Assembly: GCF_030013595.1 (NCBI RefSeq)
Contig: NZ_CP122772.1
Direction: 5' to 3' (one strand)
DNA from: Escherichia coli
Lineage (GTDB): Bacteria > Pseudomonadota > Gammaproteobacteria > Enterobacterales > Enterobacteriaceae
DNA: 64,000 nt
The stretch's first letter is position 1. Every line of letters starts with the position of its first letter. The position numbers were made by a program. Shown here piece by piece: positions 9,001-12,000 of the stretch.

Positions 9001-12000
9001 CCGACCGTAAGTCCGGCAGCCGTGAATGGTGGCAGTTATTTCGCCTGGTGTCACAGTGGCACTGCGATGTGGTTATCACGGACCGTGCCGGGCGCATCAT
9101 TGCAGCGGTTGAGCTGGACGACCGGTCTCATCAGGAACCGAAACGTCAGCGGCGTGACCTGCTGCTGGAAGAGGTGCTGAAACAGGCGGGTATCCCGCTG
9201 TTGCGTGGCGATAATGAACAGCAACTGGCGGCGCGTGTCAGGGCGCACCTTTGCGCACAGCGTCCGGAGGCCGCAGCATGAATCAGGGTAAATCCGTTGC
9301 TGTGCAACCTGTCAGGCCGGTCCTGAATTTCTCCGCGCTGCAGCGCGATGTCATCCGGATGGTGGCGTTTGTGGCGATGGTGGGGGACCACATAGCTACT
9401 GCCTTTCAGCTGGATATGCCCTTACTGAACATGGGCGGGCGCTGTGCTTTCCCCCTGTTTGCGCTGGTCTGTGGCTGCAACATGGCGGGTAAAACCTTAC
9501 GTCAGCACAGCCTGAACCGCCTGTGGCTGATGGCACTCCTGGCACAGCCGGGTTACTGGCTGGCCTTCCGGGATGTCGGCCTTGCGTGGTGGCAACTGAA
9601 TATCCTGTTCACCTTTGCTGTTGTCATGCAGGTGGCTCTTTTCCTGCAGTCTGCTACTGCCCGTAATGGTGTTGCGGCCTTCACGGTACTGATGGGGTAT
9701 ACACCGTTCAGTTCTGCCAGCTACGGCATCCCCGGTCTGCTGATGCTTGCCGGAGCGCTGCTGGTCTGGCAGGTCAGGGGCACGCTGCGTCCAGCTCTGT
9801 TTGCTGTCTGGCTGTTGCTGGTTGCCCTGCTTAATGCCCGACACGGTGATGTGATGATGTTTTCCGGCGTGATTCTGACACTGACGGTGCTGTTCTGTGT
9901 CCACGGGCTGGTACCGGCTTCCGGACGACGTCTGCAGGCAGGACGCTGGTTTGCGCCAGCGTATGCCATTCATCTGTTTTTTATTGGCTTTCTGGTCAGA
10001 GTTCTCTGACCGTTCCTGACTCCGATACAGTGGTCTGGTGCTTTAGTATTACTGAACAGCAAAAAAATGCCTCCCTCAGAGATGAAGGGAGGCGGAAGAA
10101 TAAGGCTGGTCTGATGAAACAACTCCCATGCCCGTTGGAAGTCGGATTACGGTTATTTTTTAACATATTTAGCAGGCGGAATTAAAGAGGAGAGAGGAAT
10201 GAATGGATTCAGAAACCGTTCACGAAGCAGTAAGGTCTGGTGCTGGCAGCGTGCCGGAGGCCGGGCTGTTATTCTGGAGGTCAGTGGCCGCGGGATAGAA
10301 GCGGCTGAAGCATGGATACGGGCTGCTCATATAGCTCCCCGTACTGACTGGCAGCAGTTTGCGTGGCAGAGAGCAGAATACTGCCAACGGCGCAGCAGGG
10401 GTAAGGCCGGACATCCACTACCTCCTGAAGAACGTGGTGGATGTCCGGCGAAAATCAAAGAACATACACGTCAGGTGGGCTGACGCCTTCGCGTTGCTCA
10501 GTTGTCCAACCCCGGAAACGGGAAAAAGCAAGTTTTCCCCGCTTCCGGCGTTTCTGAATAAATTTAGCTTCCAGAAAGGAGTAAACCAATGAGTTGGTTT
10601 AGCGATATATATGGTTTTGAGGAATCAACTTACGCCAGAACTCAGGCTAATTTCTACATCGATGGTCCCTTGCTTCATACCAGGGGCCAGTCATCCCGTA
10701 CCTTTCATGCCGGTATACTGACTCTGCCGAGTCTGGCTGAAATACGGAAAGCCGTTTGTAGCCTGGAGGTAAGTAGAGGTGAAAAAATAAAGCTAAGTAG
10801 TTTGGTGACCGACGCTTATGAACTTCATCGGTGTCCGGAGGCGAATCGCGCAATAATCCAGGTTGCCAGTCAGTTTAACCTCCTGGAAATGCCGAACGAA
10901 CACACTACACCGGAGAAGGGAATCACCAACTATCAGTATGATTATACGCAGGGGCCCGCATGTGCAATGGCCTGTGCTGCCGCTACGGTGTTTCGTAACT
11001 ATCTGGTCCCGGTTGGTTCGCAGAGGGGGCAGACTCAAAACTGTCAACTCAACGCTCTGGCGGACATGGACAGAGCCATTGGCATTAGGGGGATCAGAAT
11101 GCAAAATGGCTACGCTCTTCTGCAACCGGATACGGTGCTCGCCATCAGCAAACATATTGAGGCGATGGATGAACTTTCGCGTGATGAGGTGAGGCAGAAG
11201 CTCCGTGTCGGGGTTCATTCTGACACGGAAGTGACAATTCCGGGTGTACCGAAGGAGCAGCGCGTTACTCAGGTTCTTTGCGCTGCTTTACCGGTTGCTT
11301 ATCACTATTCCCCACGAAGGGACTGGGGTCCTTTTGCGACTTTAGTGCTTGAGGCCTGTTATGAAGCAACCCTGCTGGCTGCGGTGCTAAATTATCACGA
11401 CACAGGTAATCCCAGAGTCTATCTGACTCTGGTTGGTGGAGGCGCTTTCGGTAATGATCTCAGCTGGATTGTCTCTGCTCTTAGGCGTGCTCTTAACCTG
11501 GTCAGTAATCATCCGCTTGATGTGCGTTTGGTGAATAATCGTAAGGTTCCTGTAGAGATAGAGTCGTTGATCCGGGAATTTTGACGTCGCTCGACTGGCT
11601 GACGCCTCCGCATGGTGGAGTTATCCAACACCGGAAACGGGAAAATATGCCTTTATAGGGTTGTTAGCCGTGTGCGCCACGGTGTTGTGTTTTTCCCTGA
11701 TATTCAGGGAACGGTTATGTGAGCTGAATATTCACAGGGGAAATACAGTGGTGCAGGTAACTCTGGCCTATGAAGCCCGGCAGTGTGAAGTATTTCAGGG
11801 GCAGACACCCTATATACCAGAAACCGCCGATCCCGCCCGGGCCAGTACACAGGTTTAGGTATTTTCTGTTTTTTCGTTATTTCATTATCAAAATCACATT
11901 AAACGGACGTAATCAGACATGATTTGTGCGCCAACACAGATCATCGTCACAACTTTCAAGTCGCTGATTTCAAAAAACTGTAGTATCCTCTGCGAAACGA

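Follow-up and report, generated by a model that had tools for sequence, protein, structure and literature searches.

What is the gene that lies between traX and the IncFII replicon of an Escherichia coli plasmid, and what do the two repeats that bracket it represent? The question is raised by a stretch of 64,000 nucleotides from contig NZ_CP122772.1 (RefSeq assembly GCF_030013595.1), referred to here as the window. In this window, an open reading frame (ORF) at 10589-11584 was originally predicted to have no assignable family, to sit where finO is usually found and to be flanked by direct repeats that could mark an insertion or a regulatory duplication. The ORF itself is exactly as described, on the + strand and with 331 aa. 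Its product is, by structure modelling, a macrodomain-fold protein nearest to the bacterial PARG, yet it is matched by no PARG hidden Markov model (HMM) and lacks the QEE signature. The gene is genuine: an accessory gene that few plasmids carry, with a product from a large macrodomain family that is as yet uncharacterised. The repeats, as judged from their occurrence on other plasmids, are an ordinary conserved 77-nt intergenic element of F-like plasmids, named R in this work, and not an insertion scar.

Protein family and predicted fold

The sequence libraries give no assignment for the ORF protein. Neither the protein nor any of 50 aligned relatives matched Pfam, even at E-values up to 10, and the Macro (PF01661) and Macro_2 HMMs gave no significant match in the same set. 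The models PF10021, TIGR02452 and PF05028 (Pfam, NCBIfam) did not match the protein, and the NCBIfam search as a whole returned nothing. PADLOC found no defence-system match, and neither the protein nor the family profile retrieved a match among PDB sequences. The sole match in PHROGs was a group of unknown function with a meaningless E-value of 0.19. Literature searches, general and by protein accessions, turned up no paper describing the family. As far as sequence libraries are concerned, the original statement that no family can be assigned holds; structure prediction, on the other hand, places the protein in the macrodomain superfamily.

The AlphaFold2 model, built on the 50-sequence alignment, reached a pLDDT of 94.4 and a pTM of 0.93, and structure comparison recognised the three-layer alpha/beta/alpha macro fold in it. 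In a Foldseek search of the PDB, the top 9 entries were the PARG of T. curvata and D. radiodurans (E-values from 2e-5 to 2e-4), with dozens of macrodomains ranked below them. After the strand 276-280 comes the invariant G283-G-G-x-F-x-N289, which corresponds to the glycine-rich diphosphate-binding loop that in macrodomains succeeds the penultimate core strand.

For the comparison with PARG, the D. radiodurans protein (DrPARG, annotated as TIGR02452 family) was taken from the D. radiodurans MP1 plasmid and a 34-sequence PARG alignment was built. The invariant residues of this alignment are NFASA...GGGF...QEE...R and GAWGCGVFRN, with the catalytic signature at G100-G-G and Q110-E-E. The alignment of the two families with hhalign paired VYLTLVGGGAFGND of the ORF family with LVLGAWGCGVFRND, the diphosphate-binding loop (GCGVFRN in PARG). 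No significant alignment was obtained with hhalign against the single sequences of DrPARG and hMacroD2. In the ORF family the QVASQFN strand leads into a longer loop with TQGPACA in place of the PARG AQEESLA, a correspondence taken from motif order and not from superposition.

Bacterial-type PARG (TIGR02452 / PF10021; 3SIG, and DRB0099 in 5ZDA) is the closest structural neighbour of the ORF protein, at about 12% identity. The ORF protein is distinguished by about 115 additional residues outside the aligned core, among them a beta-rich extension at the N-terminus. The protein may be regarded as macrodomain-like and not as a PARG proper, because the fold and the loop match but the HMMs and the QEE signature do not. 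It is twice as large as the MacroD-type macrodomains (PF01661: YmdB, OiMacroD 5FUD, Af1521, viral nsP3), whose Nx6GG[VLI]D catalytic motif was not recognised in it. Compared with the antitoxin macrodomain DarG of DarTG, it is structurally nearer to PARG than to the ALC1-like class to which DarG belongs.

By sequence, the 331-aa protein belongs to a large unnamed family of bacteria and protists. The family amounted to more than 7,000 clusters at 90% identity in a word-indexed search, nearly all "hypothetical", and to 5,415 clusters at 50% identity in an exhaustive HMMER search. A few members are automatically labelled 'Macro domain-containing' or 'PARG' in UniProt. In AFDB50, full-length relatives with TM scores of 0.9-0.97 occur across many bacterial phyla, and the eukaryotic relatives include dinoflagellates, diatoms, oomycetes, perkinsids and one choanoflagellate. 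The 50-sequence alignment, which reaches down to 43% identity, has 57 invariant columns, and the ORF keeps all 57 of these residues. The conserved motifs are QVASQFNLLEM (91-101), D118-x-TQGPACA, RNY (136-138), NGY (173-175), ALPV (233-236, of which ALP 233-235 is invariant) and LTLVGGGAFGN (279-289, with T280-x-x-GGGAFGN invariant, the last seven residues at 283-289). The invariant polar residues N97, E100, D118, Q121, C125, R136, N137, N173 and Y175 lie by the predicted active-site loops.

Among 36 larger members of the family, eight are fused to DSP-PTPase domains, which are known from NAD/ADP-ribose "Swiss-army-knife" and polymorphic-toxin systems (PTP-SAK, PTP-NADK). The other fusions in this set involve a canonical Pfam Macro domain (one), EF-hands (two) and ankyrin repeats (one). 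Tandem members with up to three copies in one 1,229-aa protein and a fusion to an alpha/beta hydrolase were also seen.

The ORF is under purifying selection. The ratio of non-synonymous to synonymous substitution rates (dN/dS) is about 0.15, with values of 0.17, 0.14 and 0.16 against plasmid-borne variants at 94%, 86% and 79% amino-acid identity. A foreign base composition of the gene is ruled out, as its GC content of about 51% matches the flanks. In a Shigella plasmid (L004) the gene has the same leader, GTTTCTGAATAAATTTAGCT.CCAGAAAGGAGT.AACC.ATG, which likewise adjoins an R element.

The flanking repeats and the R element

One imperfect direct repeat pair flanks the gene (10478-10526 and 11597-11645; 49 nt, 41/49 positions or 84% identical). 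The 15-nt core CCGGAAACGGGAAAA has only two + strand sites in the window, both in the repeats. Counting the hairpin partner of the core, three matches were found against 0.21 expected, a number reached by none of 100 shuffles. The direct repeats of the original prediction are real, with coordinates off by only 2-3 nt, but they are not equal copies, since the right one is shorter. The right copy has 8 mismatches to R in 47 positions and lacks the second hairpin arm.

R was found at 4,122 places in 4,067 plasmids, nearly always as a single copy, and most of these plasmids are without the gene; about 3,800 of the copies are at least 95% identical. It usually sits at the DUF2726/yihA stop codon or just 5' of the srnB/hok locus or of repA2. 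The orientation of R relative to the genes is constant, and the element starts sharply at CTGACGCC after unrelated upstream sequence. The TGA near this start also ends the DUF2726 gene in plasmid L003 and the macrodomain gene in L004.

The RNA of R can form a hairpin of 18 pairs (10508-10552) followed by GUUUCUG, with a folding energy of -36.9 kcal/mol (z -2.7). Across nine R variants, pairing holds in 89.5% of the hairpin cells, whereas sliding the register gives 62% at most. Compensatory changes among the nine sequences occur in only 2 of the 18 pairs and shuffled alignments are often as good, so that covariation gives the hairpin weak support. R has no family match in Rfam; a mir-4660 match over it was below threshold and was dismissed. 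R resembles intrinsic-terminator-like or intercistronic hairpin modules in that its GC-rich hairpin comes immediately 3' of a gene, with the ribosome-binding site of the next gene within about 20-30 nt. It differs from intrinsic terminators in its short U-tract and in its unusual conservation (95-100% in about 3,800 plasmids), and a simple terminator scan made no call for R.

In L004, a full-length counterpart of the right copy lies 3' of the gene (3621-3702). R also lies 3' of the gene in the plasmids L014 (8011-8088) and L024 (8133-8188), in which no R is present on the 5' side. From these arrangements, the bracket in the window is the combination of a resident cassette-end R and the gene's own downstream R.

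Because R sits in 4,067 plasmids, mostly gene-less and with one copy each, the repeats cannot be taken as the mark of an insertion or of a local or regulatory duplication. They are instead ordinary conserved intergenic sequence, which the original prediction had named as one half of its refutation. The contrary reading, in which the repeats would have arisen as target-site duplications, as the termini of a small mobile element that brought in the gene or by local regulatory duplication, is largely refuted by these sequence comparisons and now hardly tenable. It draws on the fact that direct repeats bracket a unit missing in close relatives, and on the presence of R-type sequence at both sides of the gene in the window and in L004, the lineages of the closest gene variants. 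On the other hand, the two copies differ in length as well as sequence, the right one being a separate sequence variant, and the left one is the resident element. The single downstream R of L014 and L024 does not fit either, and neither transposase nor terminal inverted repeats are found. Finally, the event put 1,086 bp in the place of 212 bp and has a microhomology at its junction, unlike a simple insertion.

The indel, the hok remnant and finO

The closest gene-less relative is plasmid pE275a_100, which shares the backbone of the window, with the order traI, DUF2726, traX, ANR-like region, R, srnB/hok and repA2. In the blastn alignment, window 9900-10556 corresponds to 1501-2159 of this plasmid and window 11643-12300 to 2372-3071. 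The question of whether the repeat-bounded unit is an indel among related F-like plasmids is thereby answered: the alignment shows it (Table 1). The lost 212 bp of pE275a_100 comprise the srnB promoter, the leader, the mok-like frame and the start codon (ATG) of Hok. On the right, the junction falls within the microhomology ACG(G)GAAAATAT.

Beyond this junction, window 11643-11786 shares 88% identity with the coding region of Hok/SrnB in pE275a_100, where the intact Hok coding sequence extends over 2366-2515, window 11643 corresponding to position 2372. The window copy lacks the promoter, the leader, the mok-like frame, the antisense-RNA region and the ATG, and its stop codon is lost (AAG TAA to CAG TGT). 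Rfam gave no sok or hok-related match. In comparison with the srnB killing locus of the hok/sok family, the window copy is a remnant and not a working toxin-antitoxin pair, the macrodomain gene having taken the place of the upstream parts. In sister plasmids, PGAP-style annotation continues to name the remnant 'Hok family toxin', with a TTG at 11661 as its start.

A finO or FinO-like coding sequence is absent from the whole window and finO is also absent from pE275a_100. In the window it is cleanly missing, with traX ending at 10009 and homology to the post-finO region of other plasmids starting at about 10053. Since this homology resumes right after traX, the gene is not in the finO position, where it had been placed, but about 0.5 kb further, in place of the srnB/hok leader. 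The idea that the gene replaces finO was also rejected: finO was lost elsewhere in the window lineage and coexists with the gene in L024.

Distribution and genomic context

The gene does not qualify as a routinely annotated homologue. By tblastn it was detected in 341 of 72,556 plasmids, of which 33 carry a copy at least 80% identical (E. coli, Shigella and related hosts) and about 300 a copy at about 66% identity, mostly plasmids of the Klebsiella IncFII(K)/pKpQIL type. Among complete E. coli genomes it occurs in 27 of 5,426, plasmid-borne every time and always annotated as "hypothetical protein". E. coli E24377A holds both states, one plasmid with the gene (NC_009787) and one without (NC_009790).

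The neighbourhoods were looked at in 15 contexts; family members are often found on mobile elements, next to NUDIX, ADP-ribosylglycohydrolase or restriction genes. In four diverged F-like lineages the gene always occupies the slot between traX and the IncFII replicon, within variable orders. In L004 the order is traX, three hypothetical genes, R, the gene, R, a 64-aa gene, R and repA2. In Salmonella-type plasmids (L014-17) it is traX, two hypothetical genes, the gene, R, a PLD nuclease and repA2, and in L024 it is traX, FinO, the gene, an R-like element and repA2. In Klebsiella IncFII(K)/pKpQIL-type plasmids (L008 6054-7996; L018 7030-8996) the 66%-identical homologue always lies directly 3' of a SOS-response-associated peptidase (SRAP) gene, and the two may form a two-gene module.

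In an IncFIA/FII plasmid, parM and the leading region are close to the gene. In P4-like elements of the integrase-AlpA-primase type it follows the primase and has NUDIX and type I restriction-modification genes as neighbours, and one further copy lies in a BrxR/Dpd island. In Burkholderiaceae islands it follows a TY-Chap3 gene; one of these islands also contains ADP_ribosyl_GH, Metallophos, NUDIX and DUF932 genes, and the other an HD_4 gene and a MetK fragment.

An adjacent ADP-ribosyltransferase (ART) gene was found neither at the window locus, where the neighbours are the ANR-like ORF and the hok remnant, nor at the other loci examined. An ART partner elsewhere in the window was rejected as well for ORFs of at least 150 aa: those screened belong to replication, partition, a Pef/Afr-type fimbrial operon, an AraC-type regulator, a peroxidase, insertion sequences (IS) and tra genes. 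The lack of DarT or of any other ART gene beside the ORF sets it apart from DarTG in the comparison with this system and with the orphan antitoxin-like erasers of mobile elements.

Possible function and origin

Macrodomain erasers decide conflicts based on ADP-ribosylation, as in DarTG, ART toxins and viral macrodomains. As precedents for orphan erasers, bacterial PARGs reverse RNA ADP-ribosylation of the RhsP2 type and were proposed as a defence module (PMC11833690), and phages are reported to counter DarTG1 with orphan antitoxin-like enzymes (PMC11257639). To judge from the modelled fold, the protein of the window probably binds or cleaves ADP-ribose. It would bind the ADP-ribose moiety and hydrolyse the ADP-ribosyl linkage, using a catalytic loop unlike the GGG...QEE of PARG. 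Such a protein would be a stand-alone 'eraser' on plasmids, integrative and conjugative elements (ICEs) and P4-like elements, with no cognate ART beside it, and would shield its carrier element or the host of that element against ADP-ribosylation by toxins or defence systems. The repeats would take no part in the protein mechanism, R being a putative module that ends gene cassettes in the slot between traX and the IncFII replicon. The gene would have come with its own downstream R and landed beside the resident R. Recombination at the ACG(G)GAAAATAT microhomology, later or simultaneous, would then have removed the 3' half of this downstream R together with the srnB/hok promoter, leader and start. 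Taken as a whole, this explanation (a working enzyme-like macrodomain protein, an eraser role and an arrival based on R) stands at about even chances. The fold, the conservation of the diphosphate loop, purifying selection, rarity, mobility and the ADP-ribose-themed neighbours and fusions are directly supported.

Several observations weigh against an eraser. The hhalign alignment with PARG covers the C-terminal 64 columns only (E-value 9e-4, probability 23%). The PARG signature GGG-X6-8-QEE has no counterpart in the ORF family; with these catalytic residues missing, hydrolase activity is not assured and the protein could be a binder only. The gene was absent from 50,697 phage genomes searched by tblastn. 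Many homologues are eukaryotic and some, such as one betaproteobacterial copy, have a housekeeping chromosomal neighbourhood, which argues for a general metabolic role over one in conflict. The window gene is found at the plasmid end that is transferred last, outside the leading region in which early anti-defence genes cluster. Promoter prediction made no call upstream of the ORF, so the gene would probably be expressed by read-through from the upstream genes across R.

The strongest competitor to the eraser, possible but rather unlikely, is an enzyme that acts on a small ADP-ribose-derived metabolite or signal instead of a modified macromolecule, such as ADP-ribose-1''-phosphate, Appr>p, O-acetyl-ADP-ribose or a cyclic or conjugated ADP-ribose immune signal. 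The gene would then be metabolic cargo or encode a signal-degrading anti-defence enzyme. The recurrent DSP-PTPase fusions, the NUDIX neighbours, the housekeeping chromosomal copies and the broad spread in protists are consistent with this role, but PARG, the top structural neighbour, works on polymers or RNA, and the extra 115 or so residues with their N-terminal extension could recognise macromolecules. In addition, neither Thoeris-type nor other signalling genes were seen near the gene. A non-catalytic ADP-ribose reader or sensor, serving as a defence-system component or as a regulator, is improbable. Inactive macrodomains such as macroH2A and ThsA-Macro do exist, the GGG...QEE signature is missing, and the surroundings of the gene include defence-rich hotspots of P4-like elements as well as BrxR/Dpd genes. 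Against such a reader, the clustering of invariant polar residues at the predicted active-site loops is a pattern typical of enzymes; moreover, no effector partner is constant, the neighbours vary by lineage and PADLOC is empty.

Still less credit is given to a decaying hitch-hiker with no current function on the window plasmid, a very improbable state for this gene. Its rarity (0.5% of E. coli genomes), the adjoining decayed hok remnant and the lack of a detected promoter would suit such cargo. The frame, however, is intact with all invariant residues, the dN/dS of 0.14-0.17 against plasmid-borne variants and the strong ribosome-binding site speak for use, and the gene has been kept at one slot in four diverged F-like lineages.

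A more specific version of the eraser explanation is doubtful, falling slightly behind the small-molecule enzyme in probability. In it, the family would be an undescribed class of macrodomain enzymes with a non-Glu-Glu centre (candidates N97, E100, D118, Q121 and C125) that serves conjugative plasmids, ICEs and P4-like elements as an orphan eraser and neutralises ADP-ribosylation attack, for instance DarT-type modification of the transferred single strand or the ART toxins of competitors. If so, the pairing with SRAP, a shield of abasic sites in single-stranded DNA, would mark a DNA-protection module on the Klebsiella plasmids.

The family comprises thousands of proteins with a distinct active-site loop and with neither a Pfam or NCBIfam model nor a characterised member. 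Its carriers include clinically relevant plasmids, namely E. coli plasmids of the enterotoxigenic and Shiga toxin-producing (ETEC/STEC) type, those of Shigella and Salmonella and the roughly 300 of the Klebsiella IncFII(K)/pKpQIL type. If a modification derived from defence systems or toxins is reversed, the protein would give plasmids a new function in counter-defence or immunity and represent a new enzymatic class of ADP-ribosylhydrolase. If small metabolites are the substrate, it would fill a gap in the NAD/ADP-ribose metabolism common to bacteria and protists. The repeats call for caution, as a common cassette-end element of the slot between traX and the replicon, and they show that accessory genes are swapped there.

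Neighbouring features

The features of the locus and of the rest of the window are listed in Table 1. Their order confirms that the gene lies immediately upstream of the replicon control region, since CopA, repA2/copB and repA1 follow it.

Table 1. Features of the macrodomain gene locus and of other parts of the 64,000-nt window
Feature	Position	Strand	Remarks
Macrodomain-family gene	10589..11584	+	ATG start, 331 aa, intact frame
Shine-Dalgarno AAGGAG	10576..10581	+	7 nt 5' of the ORF ATG; read from sequence
Left repeat, complete 77-nt R (CTGACGCC...CCGGCGTTTCTG)	10480..10556	+	resident copy; the single R of thousands of F-like plasmids matches it at 96-100% identity
Right repeat, 5' 47-49 nt of a diverged R	11597..11645	+	ends after GGGAAAA, fused to the hok remnant
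Extra segment relative to pE275a_100 (L010)	10557..11642	+	1,086 bp in place of 212 bp (L010 2160-2371)
srnB/hok toxin remnant	11643..11786 (remnant region to 11858)	+	starts at about codon 3; tblastn and frame translation
ORF between traI and traX	8637-9281	+	214 aa, overlaps both; no NCBIfam match; counterpart annotated DUF2726 in L004, L010 and L014
ANR-like ORF	10199-10483	+	94 aa
AS-pc02, 'Antisense to pHK01_099' (Rfam)	10308-10474	-	58.2 bits against a gathering threshold of 40, E 8e-13
Inverted repeat	10406-10449		21-nt arms, 86% complementary, 2-nt loop
repA2/copB	12028-12288
CopA antisense RNA, IncFII replicon (Rfam)	12408-12498	-	89 bits
repA1	12571-13605
Five 410-aa ORFs	15363-16595, 21959-23191, 32205-33437, 56803-58035, 58632-59864	both	presumably one IS transposase
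Topoisomerase III ORF	20145-21620		truncated
Pef/Afr-type fimbrial operon	35410-39661
Haemolysin-like (ehx/hly-like) region	45945-53193	-	by ORF sizes and order; suggested by ehxD beside the locus in sister plasmid L001

Upstream of the gene, the first 69 residues of the ANR-like ORF are 59% identical to a 70-aa ANR-family regulator of other F plasmids, and its frame runs on to a TGA within the first bases (CTGA) of R. The AS-pc02 match is antisense to the 3' part of this ORF and ends 4-6 nt from the left repeat. The inverted repeat inside the AS-pc02 region, just 5' of the left repeat, is probably a structural element of the AS-pc02 RNA or the terminator of the ANR-like gene. In classical F/R100-type plasmids the DUF2726 gene (yihA) lies downstream of finO and not between traI and traX.

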